Virus record (IMG/VR): IMGVR_UViG_3300021426_000001
DNA length: 64,000 nucleotides
Source of the DNA: a virus
Lineage: Duplodnaviria; Caudoviricetes
Strand: one strand, 5' to 3'
Shown here: in pieces, positions 3,805-54,866 of the stretch
Layout: each line of letters begins with the position of its first letter
Position numbering within the stretch: the first letter of the stretch is position 1
The notes under the pieces: model-generated
What the model saw: the letters and a program-made list of their open reading frames with translations, nothing else
Database searches by the model: none
Told to the model about the DNA's origin: nothing
Translations under genes and position numbers: made by a program

Positions 3805-4370
3805 TCAGCTTTCTCCTCGGATTTCTCTTTGGATTTCTCTTCCTTCAGTCTCCAGAACTCTCTAGCGATAGTGTCAGTGACTCTGAAGTTGTTGCCGTCG
3901 TAGATGTCGCAGCAGAGACCAACCTCGGAAGCGGGCCTGCACTTCTCGTAGACAGCCTCCCAGAACTTCTCACGATCTTCCCAGTCAGGGAGATCGAATC
4001 CCTCGTCTGTCTGGTTCTCGTACCAGAACGGACGAAGATTAACGTTCTCCTTGAGGAACTTGGCTGTGCTGTTCGACGGGAAGAACTGGATAGCGACATA
4101 GTTGACGCCGTCAATGGTCTTAGCGAATACGACAGCCTGGAGCTGGTAGTCCCAGACTCCGCCCTTGCGAGGATCTTTCGTATCTTTCTCTAGAGCTTCT
4201 ATCACGTCGAACTCACCTTCCATGTTCCTGTAGAAGCAGTCCCATCTGAGCATGTCCTTCGGGACCCACTCGATGAACTTCTCTCGCAGATCAGCCAGAT
4301 ATTCTCTAGCTCTGTCCACGTCCGCGAACTCTGCGTTCTCTTTGAAGAGATATGCGTAGAACACTTTCAT
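3801..4370 (-). CDS. hypothetical protein
   Basis: start moved to MKVFYAY (ATGA overlap with upstream stop). Confidence 0.65.
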   Translation of the reverse strand: MKVFYAYLFKENAEFADVDRAREYLADLREKFIEWVPKDMLRWDCFYRNMEGEFDVIEALEKDTKDPRKGGVWDYQLQAVVFAKTIDGVNYVAIQFFPSNSTAKFLKENVNLRPFWYENQTDEGFDLPDWEDREKFWEAVYEKCRPASEVGLCCDIYDGNNFRVTDTIAREFWRLKEEKSKEKSEEKAE

Positions 4371-5794
4371 CGACATGTGTGTGTCTCCCTGAACTGCTTG
4401 ATGAACTCTTCCTTCCTCGGCGTCTTCTCGTTCACATTGAAGTACCACTCGAGTCTCTGGTCTGTGTTGTACTCTTGCTCGTTAGCGGCGTTCTTGATGT
4501 CCAAGCAGCGCTTCTCCATGTACTCTTCGAGCGACTTAGTGCCGTAGTGCTCGATGAAGCCGTTCGAGAAGTCTGGCGGAACGACCTGACCAGACATCGG
4601 ATTCTGTGGCTTTCCAGTTGCGCTGAGGCAGGCGTGAGGAGAGCTGATGAGAGCCGAGTGAATGATGTGCTGGCGCATTGGAAGTCCAGTTCTGATCATC
4701 GGCTTGCAGTACCAGTCTTCTGGGAACGGCTGAGCGTACTTCACGTCTGCCGGGCACGGAGTTCTGAATCTCTGACGCACTGGCTTGTCCTCGTACAGGA
4801 CGTGACCGTTGTCGCCGTAGTACATCCAGTTGAACTTGATGATGCTAGCGCAAGCGAACGTGTGGCGGTTCTCAGACATCCACTCCTGAAGTGTCTTTCC
4901 GTTGAGATTCAAGAACTCGTCAGCGTCCAAGAAGAGCATCCAGTCGTAGTCATCGCCGAATGTCTCGTAAGCCCACTTGTAGATTCCAGCTTGGTAGCCC
5001 ATGCTAGCGAGTCTGGTTCTGCCGCGACAGTCGAACTGATGAATGTCGTTGTGAGCGAGATCGTTGAGGCTGTTGAAGACTTGCTCCTGACCAGTCTCTC
5101 CCTCGTCATCGTTGTTGAACACGTAGAAGTGATTGACGCCGAGATTGCGGTAGTACTCTACCCACTCTTTGATGTATCTCTCTTCGTGCTTCATGATTGT
5201 GACGACAGCGAAGCGAGTGCCCTTGAGAACGACTTTCTCGTAGATCTCAAGGAACTTCTTCCATGCCTGGCTCGGATCATCTGCGTTTTCTTCGTAGCGG
5301 CCAAAGCAAGCTACTGGCGCTTCTTCCAAGAGTCCCTGTTCGAACCACATGCGGTCAGCCTTTCTCTCGATGCAGCTGAGAATTCTCTTAGCAGCGTTCA
5401 CATTCATGACGAAGCCGTTGAACCAGCAGACATGCTTATCCTTAGAGACCATCGGTGCGAAGGCGCCAGCGATGTGAGCAGTCTGAGCATTCTCTGCCTT
5501 GGCGAAGTAGAGTTCGCAGTCACGACCGAACTCTCTCTTCCATACGTCTCGGACCATCGGCTGTGCATTGTTCTGCATAGCTGCGCCCTTTGTGTGAAGA
5601 TAGAGAACTGGCTGATCCAGCTGGACTGAGAGGTTAGCTGCCATAGTGAGACCGGGCAGCTCGTAGAGTTCACCAGGCGCTTCTTGTTCGACAGCTATGA
5701 CTTCGTATTTCTTAGAGAGCCACTTGAGCATCTCTTCTTTGATCTTGAGACCTTGCTCGGTCTTGAGAACGCCGAGCACGCATCTTCTCTTCAT
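4367..5794 (-). CDS. two-domain glycosyltransferase (C-terminal GT2-like / Glyco_tranf_2_4 domain; N-terminal LYLHTKG domain)
   Basis: MKHEERYIKEWVEYYRNLGVNHFYVFNND and DWMLFLDADEF (DxD) motifs. Confidence 0.8.
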   Translation of the reverse strand: MKRRCVLGVLKTEQGLKIKEEMLKWLSKKYEVIAVEQEAPGELYELPGLTMAANLSVQLDQPVLYLHTKGAAMQNNAQPMVRDVWKREFGRDCELYFAKAENAQTAHIAGAFAPMVSKDKHVCWFNGFVMNVNAAKRILSCIERKADRMWFEQGLLEEAPVACFGRYEENADDPSQAWKKFLEIYEKVVLKGTRFAVVTIMKHEERYIKEWVEYYRNLGVNHFYVFNNDDEGETGQEQVFNSLNDLAHNDIHQFDCRGRTRLASMGYQAGIYKWAYETFGDDYDWMLFLDADEFLNLNGKTLQEWMSENRHTFACASIIKFNWMYYGDNGHVLYEDKPVRQRFRTPCPADVKYAQPFPEDWYCKPMIRTGLPMRQHIIHSALISSPHACLSATGKPQNPMSGQVVPPDFSNGFIEHYGTKSLEEYMEKRCLDIKNAANEQEYNTDQRLEWYFNVNEKTPRKEEFIKQFRETHTCR

Positions 5795-20393: not shown

Positions 20394-20422
20394 AATATAG
20401 GATTTCGAAGCGATTTTGTAAA
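20394..20422 (-). promoter_or_regulatory. early promoter TTTACA-N17-TATATT
   Basis: consensus match. Confidence 0.75.
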
Positions 20423-20440: not shown

Positions 20441-20974
20441 TTATAGTTCCTTGCAGTTGTCGCGAATGCAGAAGTTTATGAGTCCATCTGATGTGTTCTC
20501 TCGCTTGCACTTCTTGATGCACTGTTCTCTAGATGGGCTGGACTCTTCTCTGCTAGAACCGCTCTTAGTTTCAATTTTAGAGCTGATTGCAGACGCTTCG
20601 CCCTGTGGGAGTACCAAGTACACAGTGTCGCGCTTTTCGACGTATACAGTGTCTTTACGGACCGTCTGGCGCCCCTTTGCTTCATCCAGTATCGCAGCGA
20701 TCTTCGCGATCGGAATGTTCTGAGAGTGTCTGCCAGAGCAGTAGCTCTCGTCTCCGCCGCATACTGTGATCACTGCGGTCTTCAGATCACGGTCGTTGCA
20801 CTTATCGGGATGTGAGAGACATGCTCTGAGATAGAGATCCCAGTCTTCCGCTTTGCATTTTTCCATGTCAGACGCGCACTTCATACCGAAGAGCTTTGGA
20901 ACTGCTACGGCAGCTAGAATGAGGATGATTACGATGACTACCATGAGTTCGATCAGTGTAAATCCCTTTTTCAT
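20441..20974 (-). CDS. type IV pilin-like protein (prepilin cleavage/methylation motif), Cys-rich
   Basis: MKKG/FTLIELMVVIVIILILAAVAVPKLFG with E5 and P22; TAATG coupling to upstream gene. Confidence 0.85.
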   Translation of the reverse strand: MKKGFTLIELMVVIVIILILAAVAVPKLFGMKCASDMEKCKAEDWDLYLRACLSHPDKCNDRDLKTAVITVCGGDESYCSGRHSQNIPIAKIAAILDEAKGRQTVRKDTVYVEKRDTVYLVLPQGEASAISSKIETKSGSSREESSPSREQCIKKCKRENTSDGLINFCIRDNCKEL

Positions 20975-21324
20975 TATTTCTCCTTGCATAGTATTTCAAT
21001 GCACTTGTCGATGTCGGATTTGATGTAGTGGGTAGACTTGCATGTCTCTTCGCAGTTCTCGTCGATCAAGACCTCATCGAACAACGTCGGATCAGACGGA
21101 ACGGCTCTAAGAGATCTGCCGTTGGTTCTAGACTCGTACTTCTTCGGAGGGATGTTCTCACGAACCTTGACTCTTTCCTGGATCTGATTTCTCTCTTGCT
21201 TCTCCAGGAGAGCAGCAATTCTGTCAAGCGTCTGCTCGATGTGGCGTAGCTTATCCATGCACAGCATGTCGCAGCTGTATGAGCTCACGACGACTGCGAA
21301 GACTATCATCATCAACTTCTTCAT
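20974..21324 (-). CDS. secreted/lipoprotein-like protein with C-terminal 4-Cys domain
   Basis: signal peptide MKKLMMIVFAVVVSSYSC; CxxxC-x12-CxxxxCKE. Confidence 0.7.
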   Translation of the reverse strand: MKKLMMIVFAVVVSSYSCDMLCMDKLRHIEQTLDRIAALLEKQERNQIQERVKVRENIPPKKYESRTNGRSLRAVPSDPTLFDEVLIDENCEETCKSTHYIKSDIDKCIEILCKEK

Positions 21325-21328
21325 GTCC

Positions 21329-21598
21329 CTATCTCCTTCCGATGATGTTCTTTATGAATATTCCAGACAAGAGCACTGTGAAGAATCCTAGGATCCAGAT
21401 AGCGCCCATGTAAGAAGAGTCGACTGGCTTGTGCGGATCTACTACGAATGTCGTCTTCGTAGGAACCTGGATCTCTGCCATAGAAGAGTATGTGTAAGCG
21501 GGAAGGTTCAGCTGCTTCGGTTTGCTGTCGTGGATCTCTACGTCGTCCTTGAATACTGGCAGCTTTGAGAGGTGAAACTCGAACGTCTCTTGTTCCAT
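21329..21598 (-). CDS. C-terminally anchored membrane protein
   Basis: TM helix then IIGRR; first gene after promoter. Confidence 0.65.
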   Translation of the reverse strand: MEQETFEFHLSKLPVFKDDVEIHDSKPKQLNLPAYTYSSMAEIQVPTKTTFVVDPHKPVDSSYMGAIWILGFFTVLLSGIFIKNIIGRR

Positions 21599-21630
21599 TT
21601 TGTCTCCTATTGTCTCCTAGTTTGTTTTGA

Positions 21631-21676
21631 AATATAGAAAAAAGAGGAAGCGCTTGAAAATTATAGCAGCTTCCTC
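21631..21676 (-). terminator. intrinsic terminator overlapping promoter -10 TATATT
   Basis: stem GAGGAAGC/GCTTCCTC followed by U-run on minus strand, then TATATT. Confidence 0.7.
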
Positions 21677-21688
21677 GGTAAGTATTAT

Positions 21689-21848
21689 CTCCGCGTCTAT
21701 CGGAAGACCATTGGCTGGTCGCGATAGACCATTGGGGCGGAGTTTGTCACCTTAGCAGCTCCCAACGCTGCGGGTGGACTAGTTCGCTTATTTCGTTTCT
21801 GAGCCTTCTCAGGGCTCGGTCCTGTAGCACTAACTGGGGCTACGACCG
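21689..21848 (-). ncRNA. unclassified structured RNA (four stem-loops plus possible pseudoknot)
   Basis: nested CTCCGC/GCGGAG, GTCTATCG/CGATAGAC, GACCA/TGGTC; GCAGC/GCTGC; GAGCC/GGCTC; GTAGC/GCTAC. Confidence 0.55.
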
Positions 21849-21858
21849 GTCTGGAATC

Positions 21859-23139
21859 TCACTTGGAGGAGAGCTTGTTGGTGATCTCCATTAGCATGTT
21901 GAGACCAACAGCGTCCATAGCGTTTGCGCCCTTAGAGTCGGATCCGTTGAGCATGATTTCAGGTACGAGCGGATGAGCGGAGTTAGCGAGAGCCTGAGCC
22001 ACGCCGACCTTAGTCTTATATTCCCATTCAGCTCTTTCTTGCGGAGTAAGACCAGCTCTTACGAGTGCCATGTTAGCAGCAGCTTCTGCTTCCTTTTCGG
22101 CCTTGATCTTCTTAGCGACTTCGTTTGCTCTCTTAGCTTCGTATTGTGCCACTTCGAAGTCCTTCTGAGCTTGTAAGACTGCCACTTCCTTTTCCTTCTC
22201 AGCGATTGTAGTCGCCTTGATCTTTTCCACGAGCTGTTGTGCCTGTTCACGTGCTACGTCTGCCTTGCCCTTTTCACGAGCGGTGATAGCTTCCTGCTTA
22301 GCAGCTTCAGCTTCTGTAGCCTTGGAGACACGTTCCATTTCTCTCTTCTTTACCACGTCCAACTGATCCTGAGCGATCTTGTCTAGCTTGACCTTCTGAA
22401 TGACGCACTGAGTGATCTGGATGCCTGCCTTAGTGAGAGCAGACGGCTTCAAGATGATGCGGCGGCCGTTAGTGTCGAGCTTGAGCTTCGTGATCGTATA
22501 TTCTTGGTATTCAGCCTTCTTAATGACCTTTCCATTCGAGTCGAGTTCATCTGGGCCTGTCGGTTCCTTGATGACGTTAGTCTGTGTGAGGTATTCACCT
22601 TCAACGACCTGGTCATTGAACATGCGGTTCATTTCAGCGAACTTAGTGACCTTTGCCTCTTCTGCTGTGTATAGCGGAGCAGTCTTACGGACAGCGGATA
22701 GCACTTCGTTTCTCACGAGGTTGTGCTTGATGTTCTTAGAGCTGCCGTAGATTCGATGTAGCGCTAGGAGCTTTTCGCAGTCTGTTGGAAGTTCATAGAG
22801 AACGTAGCCTGACATAGAAGCGCCAGCGTTTCGAGACAGAGTCACGTCGACATCGTCTTCGTCAGTGTCATCGCCTTCCCAGCCCTCACCACGGACCTTT
22901 TCCGTAGATGAGTTGAAGTAGAACGCCTTAGCACGTTCGTAAACGTAGATGTCTGCGAAGCCCTTGACGTACCAGCCCTGACCTTCTACGCAGCTCATGG
23001 TTCCGAACGGGCTCTGCTTGATGATGAGCTCGGTCGAGTTCTTGTGACCCACGAGCATGTTGAAGAGGATGATTCCCAGGATGATGGTGGCCACGAGAGC
23101 GCCAGCGATAATCTTGGTCTTTGTGGAAAGATTTTCCAT
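21859..23139 (-). CDS. SPFH / band-7 family membrane protein with coiled-coil tail
   Basis: N-terminal TM, IKQSPFG..., long EA/KA-rich coiled coil, VPEIM C-terminus. Confidence 0.75.
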   Translation of the reverse strand: MENLSTKTKIIAGALVATIILGIILFNMLVGHKNSTELIIKQSPFGTMSCVEGQGWYVKGFADIYVYERAKAFYFNSSTEKVRGEGWEGDDTDEDDVDVTLSRNAGASMSGYVLYELPTDCEKLLALHRIYGSSKNIKHNLVRNEVLSAVRKTAPLYTAEEAKVTKFAEMNRMFNDQVVEGEYLTQTNVIKEPTGPDELDSNGKVIKKAEYQEYTITKLKLDTNGRRIILKPSALTKAGIQITQCVIQKVKLDKIAQDQLDVVKKREMERVSKATEAEAAKQEAITAREKGKADVAREQAQQLVEKIKATTIAEKEKEVAVLQAQKDFEVAQYEAKRANEVAKKIKAEKEAEAAANMALVRAGLTPQERAEWEYKTKVGVAQALANSAHPLVPEIMLNGSDSKGANAMDAVGLNMLMEITNKLSSK

Positions 23140-23241: not shown

Positions 23242-23952
23242 TTACTTGTTCATCATCTTGATCTGATCTTCAGTCAAGCGCTGAACGCCATACTTCTTGA
23301 GATCTTCTTCTGTCGCTTCATGGAACTTGGCCATGCTGTCGAAGTAGACGTACTTGTCGACGTGAATGCGCTCATGGTTCGGACAGAGGATGTACGAGAG
23401 GTAGTTGAAGTCACGATCGTGACCGTTGTCCTTGAGCTCTTCTGACATTCTCACGCGCCACGGATAGCGTGGAGGACAGTACGGGAACTTGATTTCTAGA
23501 GCTTCTGGGCAGTACTTCTTGAGAACCTTGTCAGTTCTGTTAGTGCCGAGAGCCATAGCGTGACCGTCTGCCAGCTTGACTTCGTCAAGAACCGTGTTGT
23601 CGATGTCGTGATAAGAGACATTGCCGTCTGCGTCTATCTCCTTGAACAGAGAAGATCTGCGAACGCACTGGAAGTGCTTTCTCTTGTCGTTCTCTCCAAG
23701 GCCGTAGCTGTCGCCCCAGGACTCTGGAACGTCCTCGATCGGAGTCAGCGGAATGTCGTGCATGAGACACTCTAGGATGCTGCGAGTGATGGAGAAGGAC
23801 ATGCCTGAGTGGCCGTCCTCACAGAGAGACTTGTAAGCCTTAAGCGCAGAGTCGAGACAGCCGTTGACATACGGAGTCCAGCCGCAAGCTTCTTTTCCCT
23901 CGAATTCCTTCTTGAGCTTGATTTCGTTTTCTGCCCATTCAACAAGTGACAT
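23242..23952 (-). CDS. conserved phage hypothetical protein
   Basis: DGHSGMS...PLTPIED...QCxRxSSLFK motifs recalled from other large phages. Confidence 0.7.
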   Translation of the reverse strand: MSLVEWAENEIKLKKEFEGKEACGWTPYVNGCLDSALKAYKSLCEDGHSGMSFSITRSILECLMHDIPLTPIEDVPESWGDSYGLGENDKRKHFQCVRRSSLFKEIDADGNVSYHDIDNTVLDEVKLADGHAMALGTNRTDKVLKKYCPEALEIKFPYCPPRYPWRVRMSEELKDNGHDRDFNYLSYILCPNHERIHVDKYVYFDSMAKFHEATEEDLKKYGVQRLTEDQIKMMNK

Positions 23953-25690: not shown

Positions 25691-26659
25691 TTACGGCACG
25701 TAGAGGATTGTAGGGTTGTCCTTGTGCATATCAAAGCACTTCATGAAGAAGCGTTGCGAGACGCAGTAGTTGTGCCATTCACGAACTAACTTCACAGCAT
25801 CGAACGGACAGTCGATCTTTACGAGAGTCTTGTTCTGGTCCATCTTCACGATCTCGATAGCGCCAGTCGGATTGCACTTAGCAGTGCGGAGGCACTCTTT
25901 GAGACCCTCTGCGTGGTTGATGTACTTGTCCGTGAGACTGAAGACCGTTCTGCCCTTTTCGTATTCCTTGTTCTGGGGAATCGGAGCAGTGATCTGGTAC
26001 TGAGTCGTGTACTGTTCCCAGAGATCTTTGAAAGTCTTCGTGTTGAACGGACGAGAGATGATGTGAATGCCGTGCTTCGTCGGCACTTCGGCAAAGTTCT
26101 CTTCTGCGAAGATGCCGTGATGACGTTCCCACGGAATCTGAGAGTGAGTGTCCTGAAACTCTTTCCACTTCGGAGAGATTGGATCACACTGGAAGATCAT
26201 GTCGTAGATGACGCTCTTGTGCTGAAGATATTCTTCATCCAAGTCTAGGATCCATGTCTTTCCTTCTCCTGCGCAGTTGGCGTTTCCAGCAGCGCTAGCC
26301 ACGAGACTGAACGGGCTGTTGAAGGACTGGCCAGACACGAGCTGCTCTGTGATGTGCTTCATGATAGCGAAGCTGATCTGCTGATAGTTTCGCTTGTTGA
26401 GGCGGATGTAAGCGCGAACGTTGAAGACGTCGCAGAGTTTCTTGATTTCGTCTTCTTTCTGGTCGAAGTATTCGAGAGACGGAATGAAGTAGTCCTTGAT
26501 GCTGCGGCTGTGCATGTTGCCGTGATAGTTCGGATCAGGCTTGCCGTCAATCATCGGATCGTCGGACTGACGACGGAGAAGCTGGAGGTAATAGCAGTCT
26601 CCTGGATTTTCGAACTTGAGAAGCTTGCGGATGATTGCGAAATTGTCTACTTTAGCCAT
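25691..26659 (-). CDS. conserved phage protein, possible AEP (primase-polymerase)-like fold
   Basis: WILDLD (DxD) and PTKHGIHII motifs; C-terminal HKDNPTILY. Confidence 0.45.
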   Translation of the reverse strand: MAKVDNFAIIRKLLKFENPGDCYYLQLLRRQSDDPMIDGKPDPNYHGNMHSRSIKDYFIPSLEYFDQKEDEIKKLCDVFNVRAYIRLNKRNYQQISFAIMKHITEQLVSGQSFNSPFSLVASAAGNANCAGEGKTWILDLDEEYLQHKSVIYDMIFQCDPISPKWKEFQDTHSQIPWERHHGIFAEENFAEVPTKHGIHIISRPFNTKTFKDLWEQYTTQYQITAPIPQNKEYEKGRTVFSLTDKYINHAEGLKECLRTAKCNPTGAIEIVKMDQNKTLVKIDCPFDAVKLVREWHNYCVSQRFFMKCFDMHKDNPTILYVP

Positions 26660-32327: not shown

Positions 32328-32365
32328 AATATAAGAAAATCGGGGCTTGTTGTAAACCCCGATTT
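32328..32365 (-). promoter_or_regulatory. early promoter fused with terminator hairpin
   Basis: stem AAATCGGGG/CCCCGATTT with -35 in loop. Confidence 0.85.
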
Positions 32366-33718: not shown

Positions 33719-33758
33719 AATATAGGAAAGTCCAGAAGTCTTGTAAACCCCTGGACTT
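33719..33758 (-). promoter_or_regulatory. early promoter fused with hairpin
   Basis: stem AAGTCCAG/CTGGACTT. Confidence 0.8.
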
Positions 33759-36743: not shown

Positions 36744-36779
36744 AATATAAGAAAATCCTGGGTGCTTGTAAACCCAGGA
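36744..36779 (-). promoter_or_regulatory. early promoter fused with terminator hairpin
   Basis: stem TCCTGGGT/ACCCAGGA. Confidence 0.85.
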
Positions 36780-41691: not shown

Positions 41692-42603
41692 TTACCTCTT
41701 CATAAATTCCAGCAGCTCTTTGCGAACTGAGTCGTAGTACTTGTCCCAGATCTCGATCACTTCCTGAACAGTCTTGTCGTCCACTTTGTCCATCTTGATC
41801 TTTGACGGATGTGAAGGAGAAGCTCTGAACACGTTCTCCTTTCCGATGTTGGCGCAGCACTCGTAGTAGTTGGATAGACCAGATCTTGCGACCCACTCAT
41901 CTAGAATGTACTCTAGCCAGCCAACAGCAGTCTTATTTCCAGAGTCAGTGTTTGGAGTGTCCATTCCAGTGTTGAACTGGAGAATCTTGAAGTTGTCGTG
42001 ACCAGAGTTCTTCAATCCAGACTCTAGAACCATTATCGGATCGTTAGCCCACATGCCGCCATCGCAGTATGAGTTCTTTCCGTCCATGATGACGTCGAAG
42101 TATGTCGGAGCTGCACAGCTAGTCAAGATAGCGAACCACTTCTCTACGTCCCCGTCTCCGAGGTCCCAGACCTTTTCGACGCTCTTTCCGTTCATGTGAG
42201 TCGTCGGAATGTAGATGGGCTTCTCCCAGTCTCTGATGTAGCCGCCGAACTTGCCTCTCAGTGCGCTTCTAGCGTCTCTGATGATTCCGATGAACTCTCG
42301 CTTCAGGATCTTCTTCAGATTAGAGTTGTCGTATGTCGGGCACTTTAGATTGAGTCTCTTGTACCACGAGTACTTGTCAAAAATCTTCTTCAGGTTTCCC
42401 TTGTAGAGATCCATGAGCTCCTGAGCAGACTTTCCCTCAGCGAGACCAGCAGCGATGATAGATCCAGTCGAAGTTCCGCCGTATGCGAAAGACACGTCAC
42501 ACAGCTTCTTTCCGAGATCTGACTCAAGTCTGCACATGAACTGAAGCGGGCCTACCCCGAGCATGCCTCCGCCATTGATCGAAATTCCCAATTTCTTACT
42601 CAT
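41692..42603 (-). CDS. patatin-like phospholipase
   Basis: NGGGMLG, GTSTG, AAPTYF, DGG motifs. Confidence 0.9.
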   Translation of the reverse strand: MSKKLGISINGGGMLGVGPLQFMCRLESDLGKKLCDVSFAYGGTSTGSIIAAGLAEGKSAQELMDLYKGNLKKIFDKYSWYKRLNLKCPTYDNSNLKKILKREFIGIIRDARSALRGKFGGYIRDWEKPIYIPTTHMNGKSVEKVWDLGDGDVEKWFAILTSCAAPTYFDVIMDGKNSYCDGGMWANDPIMVLESGLKNSGHDNFKILQFNTGMDTPNTDSGNKTAVGWLEYILDEWVARSGLSNYYECCANIGKENVFRASPSHPSKIKMDKVDDKTVQEVIEIWDKYYDSVRKELLEFMKR

Positions 42604-42700
42604 TATCTTCCTCTCTTTTGCTACCTCTGATAGCTTTGACTGCACAAACGACTGCTAGTACGATGTACAGAATGAACATGATTCCCAGAATCCACAGCAT
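42596..42700 (-). CDS. 34-aa single-TM peptide (not in ORF track)
   Basis: MLWILGIMFILYIVLAVVCAVKAIRGSKREEDNE, coupled to endolysin stop. Confidence 0.6.
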   Translation of the reverse strand: MLWILGIMFILYIVLAVVCAVKAIRGSKREEDNE

Positions 42701-46690: not shown

Positions 46691-47584
46691 CTATTTATAT
46701 TTCTCCGGGTTGAAGATCACTTCGAGATTGCACTCTTCCGAAGACTTGTCGTAGACGAACTTCTTCTCCTGCATGATCTTCTTCAGAGCCGAGGTAGCTC
46801 TCGCTAGCGCTCTCGAACGCTTCTGTCTCATTCTCTCGCCAGACAGACCTCTCAGCTTGCCCATCTCGTCCTGAGTCATCCCGTAGAGGTAGGTCTCACG
46901 GATCATGTTGTAGTCATCTTCCGAGCAAGAAGCCTTCAAAATCTCGCCGAGCTTTCTATCCATGTCTTCGTCTACGACTCTCTTGTGTGAATCGCCGCAG
47001 TCGCACGCGATAGTGTCTCCCAGAGTGATGGCGACATCTTCCATGCTCGACGTCTGAGTGCCGTTCTTGACTTTGACGTCGAGCGAGAGTACTGGCGCAG
47101 TAGCCCTGAGGAAGTCCACAGACCTCTGCTCCGAGGTGTCGAGCAGATTCTCTTTGAACTTCTTCATCATCACGGACTTTCCGTACATCGGAACGTGAAC
47201 TGCGTCATTGCAGCGGTATATCTCCTCGTTCATCTTCTGAGTGATCCACCAGATAGCGTAAGAGGTGAAACGGCACTTCTTGCCTCCGACCCTCTTTTCT
47301 GGATCGTAGTCGGTAGCAGCTCTTATTATTCCGATCACGCCAGCCTGATAGAGGTCGGGAATCCCTTGGCCGTTCTTCTTCGCCTTCATCCTAGCGACAC
47401 TAAATATTAGACGGCTGTGGGACTGAATGAGCTTGTTTCTAGCGAGAAGTCTGATCATCGCTGGCTTACTCTCGTCTCTCATGATGTCGATCGTTACACG
47501 CTCCTCGCGTTCAGTCATCACTGGCGAGTCTTTGAGCGTGTTCTTCAAGTAGTCTAGGTTTTCGTAGAGATCAATGTCATTCAT
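46691..47584 (-). CDS. sigma-70 family RNA polymerase sigma factor
   Basis: region 2 DLYQAGVIGIIRA..YDP..RFTSYAIWWI; region 4 TQDEMG...LSGERMRQ. Confidence 0.88.
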   Translation of the reverse strand: MNDIDLYENLDYLKNTLKDSPVMTEREERVTIDIMRDESKPAMIRLLARNKLIQSHSRLIFSVARMKAKKNGQGIPDLYQAGVIGIIRAATDYDPEKRVGGKKCRFTSYAIWWITQKMNEEIYRCNDAVHVPMYGKSVMMKKFKENLLDTSEQRSVDFLRATAPVLSLDVKVKNGTQTSSMEDVAITLGDTIACDCGDSHKRVVDEDMDRKLGEILKASCSEDDYNMIRETYLYGMTQDEMGKLRGLSGERMRQKRSRALARATSALKKIMQEKKFVYDKSSEECNLEVIFNPEKYK

Positions 47585-52292: not shown

Positions 52293-54866
52293 CTACGTGC
52301 CAACGTGATTTCTGATTTGAAGGAAGAAGCGCTTCATCGGAGCGTACTCTGCATACTCCGAGTTCCACCAGTCGCTATTTCCGAGTGAGCAGTCAGGACT
52401 GTTCCAGTTAGAGATTCCAGCTACGTTCTGCCATCTCCAGTTGAGTGTCGGATTAGCGTGGACGTCGTTGTCGTAACCGTTTGCGCAAGCTAGGAAGAGT
52501 CCAGTGTTGTGAACTGCCGGAATAGCGATCGCAGCGTAGTATGCTCTGTCTGATCTCAGCTCGTTGTGTTCTGGGTTGATGTGAGTTACTCGGAAGTCGA
52601 GTCTGTCGCTAGCTGACTGCTTACCAAGACTGATCGGGCCAGTGTCGCATACCCACTCGGTAGTACCAGATCCGTTGTTTCCCTCGAAGTCATACTCGAA
52701 GATTCCAAGCATGACCTTGGTGTTAGGGTAGCCAGTGTCCATCATGTAGACAGTGAAGTAAGTGTCTTCAGTGATCATGTGGTTCAGAGATACGGAGAAG
52801 AGCTGGCAGATGCAGCAGTCGCCGTTCATGCTCTGAAGATAGTCTGTGAAGTCCTGATGGGTGTTAGTGATCAGCGGGTACGGGAAGTTAGTCGTCAGCT
52901 TTCCATCTAGCTCTCTCTTCAGTCTGTTGACCGTGTCGACGACGCCCTCGACCTCCTGGTCGAGGATGATCTGCTTTCCAGAGTAGGTGAGACCGTAGCC
53001 AACATCCACGCACATCTGACCAGCAGAGTTGAATGACAGACCTGAGTTGATGTTAGCCATCAGGTTGCCGTTCTGATCGAACTTGATGCCTGAGTTTACT
53101 CCAACGTGTAGCGCAGAAGTAGTCGGGTCAGTCTTTAGACCTGCTCCGAGATTCAGATCCAGAACTGCTCTGTCTGCGCCTGGAGTCCAAGCAAGGCCAG
53201 GACCAATGTCGAAGTCTTCTGCCTTTGTGTCGATCATGTCAAGGATGTCTTCGTAAGTTGACTGAATGCTGAGAGGATTTCCTACAGTTCCATCACCCTC
53301 GATAGTGTCATCCGTAGCTACATGCTCAAGACCGCCAGAAGATCCTCCTCCAACGCATGAGTCAAGCTTCACGATCTGAAGCTTCTGAATATAGCAGTCT
53401 GTCCACTGAACCTTAGTCGATGGTGCAAAGTACAGAACCTTTCCATCACTTTCTGTAACGTGACGTACGAACGTGACTCGGAGATTGTGTCGATTGCCGT
53501 TAGCTTCAGGTCCAGACGAGTCAAGCTGATAAGCTATAGACTCGTTAGCGTTGCCATATCCAGTGTAGACCAAGACTTCATCAAGAGTATTCGAGAGATC
53601 TTCTCTATCCTGCTGATATCTGATGATGCAGTCAATGTAGTATAGACCTGGCTTCAAATAGATGTAGCCATCGTAAACCCCGTCAGGATATGGACATTTC
53701 TCTATGTGATCGATGAAGTCTCCAACATAATCTACTGCTCCACTTCCCTGTAGGCGACCCGTGCTGATGCCAAGGGTATGTCCTATGTTATCGCCAGGGA
53801 ACGGCATATAGCTCGGGCCGTATCCGCCAAGCCAGTGCTGGCAAGATTCCTTGCTGATCTCTAGGTTGAAGTGTCCCGCAGCAGAGCTAGTGATGTCGAT
53901 CGTCTTTCCAGAAGAAGTGATGTCGACATCTACCTTCACGTCTCCACTGAGACCGACAGCGTAAGAACCATGCTCTTCGTCGAAGTGTGCCTCTACTCCG
54001 TCATAGCCGTAGATGTCTGGAATGTTGATCGTCTCAACTGACAGATCGAATACTCGGTTTCCGTTCTCGTCATATCCGCTATTGACGCCTATGCTTCCGT
54101 TAGTTGAGTGAACTCTCGTGTTGTGGAAAGAGCTGACTTCGTTCCATGCTGCTGAATGTTCATGGAGAGTGTCGTAAGCGCCGTCCCACTTTCCTGAGAG
54201 ATCGTCTAGAGCGTCAGCTGGCATGTAGTCGCCCTTCAGCTGATACTTAGCGAACTCGTCTGCGAGCTCTTGCTTTCCGCTAGTCTCCGTCTTGGCGTAG
54301 ACTTCTTCCTTGGTGTAGTAGTCGTCAAGATTGAACTTATGCTGGTAATTCTCCTCTACCCAAGCAGACTGAGCATAAGCGCTCATGCCCGAAGCGTCGA
54401 ACTTGCTAGATACGTCATTCCAGCGGTCTACTGCTTCTTTCCATATTCCGAACGGAGAAGAGTCAGTTCCGTCTCCGCTGACTGGATATTGCGAAGATGC
54501 GCCGCTGAAGATGAAGTTAACGTTAGTCTTGCCCTCTACAGTATCTTTTCTAACTTCGATTCCGTAGCCGCCCACATAGTCAACGAGGCCTGGAATGTCT
54601 GACTTCTTCGCGTAGTCGCCAGAGACTGAGATCTGGTGACCATCGACTTTGATTCCGTCTCCTCCCTTATACTCTTCGATGTCCCAGTGCTGTGTCTGTG
54701 CAGACCAGGATTCGAATGCGCTCTTGTCAAGCTTTGCGCTCGTCTTCTGGATTTCTTCGTAAAGACGCTGATCCAGGCCGAGAGGCACCTTCACGCCGTC
54801 ACCAGAAAACGTGACGTCGTGTTCAACCTTGTGTATGGCCAGGATATTTCCACCTGAAACAATCAT
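52293..54866 (-). CDS. large structural / tail fibre-like protein
   Basis: repeated GDG..PL and GxGI/L motifs; first gene after late promoter. Confidence 0.65.
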   Translation of the reverse strand: MIVSGGNILAIHKVEHDVTFSGDGVKVPLGLDQRLYEEIQKTSAKLDKSAFESWSAQTQHWDIEEYKGGDGIKVDGHQISVSGDYAKKSDIPGLVDYVGGYGIEVRKDTVEGKTNVNFIFSGASSQYPVSGDGTDSSPFGIWKEAVDRWNDVSSKFDASGMSAYAQSAWVEENYQHKFNLDDYYTKEEVYAKTETSGKQELADEFAKYQLKGDYMPADALDDLSGKWDGAYDTLHEHSAAWNEVSSFHNTRVHSTNGSIGVNSGYDENGNRVFDLSVETINIPDIYGYDGVEAHFDEEHGSYAVGLSGDVKVDVDITSSGKTIDITSSAAGHFNLEISKESCQHWLGGYGPSYMPFPGDNIGHTLGISTGRLQGSGAVDYVGDFIDHIEKCPYPDGVYDGYIYLKPGLYYIDCIIRYQQDREDLSNTLDEVLVYTGYGNANESIAYQLDSSGPEANGNRHNLRVTFVRHVTESDGKVLYFAPSTKVQWTDCYIQKLQIVKLDSCVGGGSSGGLEHVATDDTIEGDGTVGNPLSIQSTYEDILDMIDTKAEDFDIGPGLAWTPGADRAVLDLNLGAGLKTDPTTSALHVGVNSGIKFDQNGNLMANINSGLSFNSAGQMCVDVGYGLTYSGKQIILDQEVEGVVDTVNRLKRELDGKLTTNFPYPLITNTHQDFTDYLQSMNGDCCICQLFSVSLNHMITEDTYFTVYMMDTGYPNTKVMLGIFEYDFEGNNGSGTTEWVCDTGPISLGKQSASDRLDFRVTHINPEHNELRSDRAYYAAIAIPAVHNTGLFLACANGYDNDVHANPTLNWRWQNVAGISNWNSPDCSLGNSDWWNSEYAEYAPMKRFFLQIRNHVGT

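Follow-up and report, generated by a model that had tools for sequence, protein, structure and literature searches.

The stretch of DNA analysed here, referred to below as the window, comprises 64,000 nucleotides of the IMG/VR virus record IMGVR_UViG_3300021426_000001. At 20441-21636 its minus strand carries three tightly packed open reading frames (ORFs), namely orfA, orfB and a gene specifying a chimeric prepilin-like protein, which is the main subject of this report (Table 1). Four bases lie between the stop codon of orfA and the ATG of orfB. The prepilin-like gene possesses an AGGAG ribosome-binding site, and its ATG overlaps the TAA of orfB by one base (TAATG). Comparison with a relative, locus L025, gave ratios of nonsynonymous to synonymous substitution (dN/dS) of 0.40 for orfA, 0.14 for orfB and 0.24 for the pilin-like gene (range 0.24-0.27), with 0.10 for the neighbouring SPFH gene; all three genes are therefore coding and under purifying selection. 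A preliminary description of this DNA had proposed a three-gene unit flanked by promoters, with no pilus machinery nearby. Each element of the unit was found in its place, and no pilus machinery was found among the larger ORFs of the window. A second class III signal peptide was not found in the window.

Table 1. Features of the prepilin-like locus and their positions in the window
Feature	Position	Strand	Description
SPFH/Band 7 membrane protein	21859-23139	minus	Pfam Band_7, 25.7 bits (cut-off 23.6)
Early-type promoter before orfA	21631-21676	minus	Hairpin-embedded; stem GAGGAAGC/GCTTCCTC at 21669-21676 / 21644-21651
orfA	21329-21598	minus	89 aa; acidic N-terminal part with PVFKDD, one C-terminal transmembrane segment, then KNIIGRR
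orfB	20974-21324	minus	116 aa; Sec-type signal peptide (MKK + hydrophobic + SSYS)
4-Cys module of orfB	20980-21054	minus	Residues 91-115; C-x3-C-x12-C-x4-C
Chimeric prepilin-like gene	20441-20974	minus	177 aa
Leader MKKG and alpha1-N	20882-20974	minus	Precursor residues 1-31; Gly-1, Phe1, Glu5, Pro22; host-pilin-like
Codons Ile13-Leu14 (ATC CTC)	20921-20926	minus	Met13-Gly14 (ATG GGC) in relatives
Cys-rich all-helical head (predicted)	20669-20878	minus	Residues 33-102; C-x6-C pairs C33/C40, C52/C59, C72/C79
Tandem K/R-D-T-V-Y repeats	20615-20656	minus	Residues 107-120, inside the low-confidence linker
4-Cys module of the pilin-like protein	20447-20521	minus	Residues 152-176; predicted helix-loop-helix
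Early-type promoter of next gene	20394-20422	minus	Perfect class member; closes the three-gene unit

A sigma-70-like early promoter class, TTTACAA-N17-cTATATT, has 14 sites in the window where 0.02 would be expected, and every one of them is on the minus strand. The late class, TATAAATA, occurs seven times against 0.47 expected, among other places ahead of large ORFs of late type (for example those that start at 54866, 48264 and 44155). The promoter before orfA is an imperfect member of the early class: the -35-like TTTTCA (21655-21660), with one mismatch, lies in the loop of the hairpin and is followed by a run of T residues and a -10-like TATATT (21631-21636), the spacer being 18. Since the promoters flanking the unit belong to the early class and not to the late one, we infer that the three genes are expressed early. 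The pilin gene and orfB have a ~92% identical relative on a metatranscriptome contig; because carry-over of DNA is possible, the contig was not used as evidence of expression. Most early-class sites are hairpin-built, with the -35 in or beside the loop and, after the 3' arm, a T-run acting as spacer ahead of the -10 (for example at 20394-20422, 32328-32356, 33719-33747 and 36744-36772), and they look like compact terminator-promoter units.

The pilin-type N-terminus and the Leu14 allele

The product of the third gene begins MKKG/FTLIELMVVIVIILILAAVAVPKLFG, in which MKKG/FTLIE provides a short basic leader, a Gly, a Phe at +1 and a Glu at +5. In mature numbering the window protein has E5, L14 and P22. 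The prepilin N-terminus noticed in the preliminary description was borne out by Pfam N_methyl (PF07963; 32.9 bits, cut-off 21.2) and by TIGR02532 (34.9, cut-off 16.3). A word-indexed search found full-length homologues in more than 100 clusters, every one of them metagenomic. Glu5 is present in 97 of 97 family representatives, these being the members with a recognisable N-terminus, Pro22 in 96 and Gly14 in 93.

Over its first 27 mature residues the consensus of this family is identical, 27 of 27, to the pilin L030 of a ruminal Fibrobacter, after which divergence is complete. When the genomes of 185,579 species were searched with the N-terminus, the best matches were again to ruminal Fibrobacter (90% over residues 2-31). 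Similarity to bacterial pilins is restricted to residues 1-31 of the protein, and solved pilins match the family profile only over its N-terminal ~30-50 positions (alpha1). Since the protein opens with ~31 residues that nearly copy the N-terminus of a Fibrobacter pilin, the prepilin peptidase and type IV filament machinery of the host should accept it. Fibrobacter genomes encode both a prepilin peptidase (Peptidase_A24) and secretins. A prepilin peptidase was not found in four related phage fragments, which are just 10-35% complete and hence uninformative.

At position 14 the window protein stands apart from its family. The representatives without Gly14 carry Ser (2), Ala (1) or Val (1), and none carries Leu. 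Gly14 and Pro22 border the alpha1 segment that melts during assembly (PMC5059446), and the preliminary description had taken Leu14 as the basis of its proposal that the processed protein poisons or caps host pilus assembly; the mechanism considered here is a stiffening of alpha1-N by Leu14. Leu14 is truly present, being fixed in the contig of the probable source sample (depth 112; run contigs carry no allele frequencies), and it recurs in one zero-difference contig of 82 bases from another sample in the same study. With that depth and recurrence an assembly error is unlikely. The 90%-identical relative L025 has ATG GGC in place of ATC CTC within almost unchanged DNA, so that the closest relatives differ at both codons by one three-base cluster only, and the Met-Gly form was also seen in a sheep run. 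Leu14 is a real, private, three-base allele at strain level and lies outside the mechanism of the family. Given Gly14 in 93 of the 97 representatives and Leu in none, stiffening by Leu14 cannot be the family function and would apply to one strain at most. Pro22, essential to melting and assembly (PMC10710030), is moreover kept, leaving at most an allele-specific effect. We consider poisoning or capping through Leu14 very unlikely. Leu14 as a common residue in host pilins had been named as a finding that would count against the proposal; the pilins of Fibrobacter have Gly, Ser or Ala at this position and never Leu, so it is not on this point that the proposal fails.

The body of the protein and its shared hairpin

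The pilin-like protein contains ten cysteines, and the three C-x6-C pairs of its head are invariant or near-invariant in the family. The AlphaFold2 model (predicted local distance difference test score, pLDDT, 67; 75-87 in the head) is all-helical with zero strands, and a low-confidence linker of 43 residues (103-145) precedes the C-terminal hairpin. Conservation is uneven along the chain. Over 84 family members the column identity is 0.91 for the leader and alpha1-N, 0.43 for the head, 0.38 for the linker and 0.66 for the hairpin, and the same four regions of 62 distant members are 87%, 25%, 28% and 53% identical to those of the window protein. The head evolves fast.

Homologs of the body were sought in several ways. 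Foldseek with the pilin-like protein against the PDB gave nothing at E <= 0.001, with no pilin among the matches; an exhaustive VIA search reached a best Z of 4.3, with no meaningful match to the head and no pilin; and the Protein Atlas feature search gave no usable match. An exhaustive hidden Markov model (HMM) search with the body alone retrieved 33 proteins among 1.84 billion representatives, every one a member of the family or a small hairpin-bearing companion. Head and hairpin were found in 0 of 101 Fibrobacter genomes, the positive control recovering 4 of 4 phage records. By these searches the pilin-like family appears closed and phage-only, and everything after residue ~31 appears foreign to pilins. 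The protein resembles the type IVa major pilins and type II pseudopilins in its basic leader, Gly-1, Phe1, Glu5, Pro22, hydrophobic alpha1-N and consensus Gly14, and differs from them in having no predicted alpha-beta globular domain, no similarity beyond residue ~31, ten cysteines and, in the window, Leu14.

The motif of the linker is not peculiar to this protein, since H/K-D-T-V-Y also comes after the membrane anchor of phage proteins encoded nearby in relatives. DTVYV resembles a TonB box; the N-termini of four Plug-domain receptors from one Fibrobacter genome contained nothing similar. In two relatives a membrane-anchored SLT lytic transglycosylase (L027, 116-805; L029, 92-781) has H-D-T-I-Y a short way past its transmembrane helix, much as the pilin-like and transmembrane proteins of the locus do.

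The motif C-x3-C-K-x8-I-x2-C-I-x3-C-K-E closes both orfB and the pilin-like protein; it is ungapped and lies one residue from each C-terminus, and 9 of 26 positions are identical. This common ending, already pointed out in the preliminary description, goes beyond chance: hhalign of the orfB and pilin family alignments brought the C-termini together with an E-value of 2.1e-5 over 30 columns, and the pilin body, used in an exhaustive profile search, likewise picks up the small companions through the 4-Cys module (E 1e-4 to 1e-13). On these profile comparisons the modules of the two proteins are homologous. The exact spacing C-x3-C-x12-C-x4-C is shared by 90 of the 97 pilin family members. In the relatives the module is found at the C-terminus of at least four kinds of protein, namely the pilin-like protein itself; orfB-type proteins with a signal peptide, C-x3-C and an amphipathic helix; proteins of 105-171 residues with a signal peptide, P-x-V-F/Y-K/R-D/E repeats and mostly a CGCxCC-like cluster; and proteins in which a plain transmembrane helix is followed by HDTVY.

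In the AlphaFold2 model the hairpin helices span residues 147-159 and 163-173 (block-mean pLDDT of 83-86 over residues 151-170). Residues 142-177 had consistent fold matches to the plant alpha-hairpinins only, and these were weak (Z 3.0-3.3, root-mean-square deviation 2.0-2.6). Like BWI-2c (2lqx), Luffin P1 (2l37) and the vicilin-buried peptides (9q1l), the module would be a helix-loop-helix of ~30 residues stapled by four cysteines. Unlike them, its second motif is C-x4-C rather than C-x3-C, it has no sequence relationship to them and it forms part of larger proteins. The resemblance is a structural analogy only, its scores being weak for so small a domain, and the phage module is of bacterial-virus origin.

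OrfB possesses CDMLC (C-x3-C) at its predicted mature N-terminus, followed by a long amphipathic helix, a disordered linker and the 4-Cys module. A complex prediction with the pilin body and mature orfB scored 0.00 against a mark of 0.32, which is evidence neither way. The third product, orfA, had no matches in Pfam, PHROG or NCBIfam; because of the positive-inside rule its topology is probably N-out/C-in.

The motif P-x-V-F/Y-K/R-D/E, often in tandem, is present in orfA, in an extension of the SPFH gene described below and in secreted hairpin proteins of relatives (L003, 4744-5085; L027, 3651-3998; P0162), and is a third shuffled element of the locus beside DTVY and the 4-Cys hairpin. Several companion hairpin proteins (P0158, P0166, P0167 and P0168, and again L003 4744-5085 and L027 3651-3998) have Cys clusters directly after the signal peptide, among them AGCGCFCCK, GPCCFCGKC, NLCGCLCCK and SNCSCFCCN. 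These clusters may represent multiply acylated or metal-/disulfide-rich N-termini.

The SPFH gene and the host

All relatives examined have the pilin gene downstream of the SPFH gene, with 0-4 small secreted or membrane proteins intervening. The two other genes of the unit are less constant. OrfB homologs form 23 clusters (68-98% identity) and occur in a subset of the relatives, where orfB can be 76% identical beside a pilin that is just 37% identical; orfA homologs were found in L025/L026 only (84% identity). Neither gene is present in L001 or in L023, whose SPFH protein is 95.5% identical. Conservation of the operon in related phages, on which the earlier proposal in part depended, therefore holds for the pilin gene and not for the unit as a whole.

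This distribution bears on a possible role in lysis, in which orfB would be an outer-membrane lipoprotein-like o-spanin joined by disulfide bonds to the pilin-like protein as i-spanin. The two genes are adjacent and translationally coupled, both products are Cys-rich, and one is anchored in the membrane by its N-terminus and has a helical part in the periplasm while the other is secreted with a Cys at its predicted mature N-terminus. However, orfB is missing beside the pilin gene in L023 and L001, S-Y-S-C departs from the canonical lipobox, the promoter belongs to the early class and not to the late one, and the conserved pilin assembly residues would be left unexplained. Such a pair is the least probable of the roles considered here, and it was rejected on the ground that orfB is not constant among relatives.

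Past the TGA of the SPFH gene (21859-21861) the reading frame stays open for 53 more codons (21700-21858, minus strand), ending ...APMVYRDQPMVFR. The open extension is also present in L025/L026, L023 and L001, with TGA as the stop in all, and over its first 36 codons the comparison with L023 gave a dN of 0 and a dS of 0.245. Relatives in which the stop is TAA (L027, L029, L003 and L004) are without the extension and have a separate secreted protein with a P-x-V-F/Y-K/R-D motif. The extension is a candidate for programmed TGA readthrough or for an unrecognised start. Just upstream of the SPFH gene, in a position kept in L023 and L025, lies the gene for a Tad3-like protein (23242-23952; Pfam Tad3, E 8.5e-22); Tad3 is a family of type I Thoeris inhibitors. 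Elsewhere in the window are genes for a patatin-like phospholipase (41692-42645), a sigma-70 region 2 protein (46691-47584) and a family 2 glycosyltransferase (4367-5794).

The window is T4-like, as indicated by T4-type RNA ligases, T4 RNase H and the late TATAAATA sites; it also encodes the Tad3-like and SPFH proteins. All its genes are on a single strand, and a related scaffold is 252 kb in length. Public runs that contain the stretch are ruminant gut metagenomes in all cases. Neither megablast of the region nor tblastn of the pilin-like protein gave a match in the INPHARED phage collection, and no isolate phage matches.

The host was approached through the SPFH gene as well as the pilin N-terminus. 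The DNA of the SPFH gene is 65-70% identical over ~1.1 kb to genes in about one quarter of the 101 Fibrobacter genomes, and the nearest cellular homologs of its product (56-68%) are nearly all from Fibrobacter, where they sit among housekeeping genes and the contigs reach 288 kb. These chromosomal homologs provide a host link that is independent of the pilin N-terminus. Taken together, the matches indicate that the carriers of the pilin-like family are large T4-like phages of ruminant-gut Fibrobacter, and the SPFH and pilin matches offer a usable host assignment for the phage clade. The family 2 glycosyltransferase has only distant matches, in Chlamydiae and Selenomonas, and is uninformative on the host. 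Of the few SPFH matches outside Fibrobacter, those that could be resolved, three short contigs in metagenome-assembled genomes (MAGs) labelled Clostridia and Rickettsiales (L142, L144 and L147), hold an SPFH gene together with pilin or hairpin genes and, because of these companions, are probably phage DNA misbinned into unrelated MAGs. A 266-kb contig of a 'Bacilli' MAG (L149) has an SPFH homolog (58%) with no pilin-family gene within 5 kb.

The part of the window homologous to the Fibrobacter SPFH loci (L136-L141 and L148) is 21869-22971. A second stretch, 26385-26650, inside an ORF of 322 residues (25691-26659), shows a 72-74% match to a Fibrobacter gene which, in several of the same genomes, sits ~600 bp from the SPFH homolog. 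This suggests that the phage may have taken a two-gene block from its Fibrobacter host.

Possible roles of the pilin-like protein

Phage-encoded pilins have a precedent. Prophage FimU mimics (P-FimU, of Pseudomonas F10-like phages) join pili and block adsorption, and the same role has been proposed for PilA-like proteins of virulent phages, including forms of 60 residues that consist of the N-terminus only (PMC12952977). Like P-FimU and the PilA-like proteins, which are found in Xylella prophages and virulent phages (PMC12952977), the window protein has a pilin N-terminus in a phage without pilus machinery and a highly diverse variable part, and the role proposed is the same, to alter or block the pilus against adsorption. 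It differs from P-FimU and P-PilA, which are host-like over their full length and have the pilin fold, in being host-like over ~31 residues only, in bearing an unrelated, all-helical, Cys-rich head and a hairpin common to neighbouring secreted proteins, and in the position of its gene behind the SPFH gene of a T4-like jumbo phage. Its role here is predicted. For the preliminary proposal, a pilin mimic with a periplasmic partner, speak the canonical prepilin start without pilus genes nearby, the co-transcribed secreted protein with the same module and the precedent for a mimic or superinfection-exclusion role (PMC12952977); a type IVa pilin head is not supported, the body being predicted all-helical and giving no pilin match.

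By analogy with these proteins we tentatively favour the reading that the protein is an early-expressed pilin mimic which enters or blocks the type IV filament machinery (pilus or pseudopilus) of the host. Transcribed from the early sigma-70-type promoter, it would go into the inner membrane and would most likely enter or jam the host filament, whose display would be altered or which would be stopped. The infected cell and the phage progeny would then be shielded from pilus-dependent adsorption or superinfection, as with P-FimU and the phage PilA-like proteins. Fibrobacter pilins and type II secretion have been implicated in cellulose attachment (PMC4668043), and on the same analogy pilus-dependent attachment to cellulose could change. 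The retention of Gly-1, Phe1, Glu5, Gly14 and Pro22 and of a host-like stem, in proteins whose bodies have fallen to 25% identity, argues that the stem meets components of the host filament. The hairpin is the probable working end, binding one common envelope target, because the same hairpin sits on other anchors at the locus: a Sec signal peptide and helix in orfB, and Cys-cluster signal peptides and plain transmembrane helices in relatives.

Several points weigh against the mimic. Its modelled body is not a pilin head, and packing into a filament is a proposal. The N-terminal similarity has doubled as a clue to the host, so that calling the stem a copy of a host pilin leans on the SPFH gene for independence. 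The use of pili by Fibrobacter phages is assumed, and the case as a whole is built from sequence and models. Finally, the partnership with SPFH and the reuse of hairpin and DTVY on non-pilin anchors would fit a role in the inner membrane or periplasm equally well.

Such a role would make the pilin stem just a cleavable inner-membrane anchor in an envelope module organised by SPFH, with the hairpin binding a periplasmic target, for instance to block the genome entry of a second phage, as do T4 Imm and Spackle, or to tune lysis. Imm and Spackle are small early membrane or periplasmic proteins of superinfection exclusion that act in the envelope; the window protein, unlike them, has a pilin-type N-terminus and is likened to them by role alone. 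The invariant SPFH-then-pilin order with variable genes between, the early-class promoter, the non-pilin head and the long flexible linker are all consistent with this module, as is the shuffling of hairpin, H/K-DTVY and P-x-V-F/Y-K/R-D/E among Sec-secreted, transmembrane-anchored and pilin-anchored proteins, and also within the in-frame extension of the SPFH gene. Yet a mere membrane anchor would need neither the conserved Glu5, Gly14 and Pro22 nor near-identity to the N-terminus of a host pilin, and the sibling proteins of the locus make do with ordinary transmembrane helices or signal peptides, which argues for a filament-directed stem. We therefore hold the SPFH-organised module to be a serious if somewhat unlikely alternative.

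A broader arrangement, which we think improbable, would be a modular system of envelope display in which a Fibrobacter-derived SPFH scaffold works with interchangeable anchors (a pilin stem identical to that of the host, signal peptides of the Sec and Cys-cluster types, and plain transmembrane helices), all presenting one disulfide-stapled hairpin by way of the linear motifs DTVY and PxVF[KR]D, the pilin version riding the host pilus or pseudopilus so as to bring the hairpin past the inner membrane. If so, the phage would use the type IV filament to deliver a foreign effector domain, instead of just masking a receptor.

The defence of infected cells by phage pilins that mask receptors has been demonstrated only recently, and the PilA-like genes of virulent phages were left unexplained in that work. 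The pilin-like family described here adds a conserved example, carried by large T4-like phages of Fibrobacter; this bacterium is a key degrader of cellulose in the rumen, and almost none of its phages have been characterised. Its design is unusual in that a host-identical pilin stem is set on a non-pilin, disulfide-rich body whose terminal hairpin turns up again on other secreted proteins of the phages. Should the pilin mimic indeed enter filaments, the alpha1-N stem alone would suffice for the uptake of a foreign domain, and phage infection could be tied to the pilus-dependent attachment of Fibrobacter to fibre.

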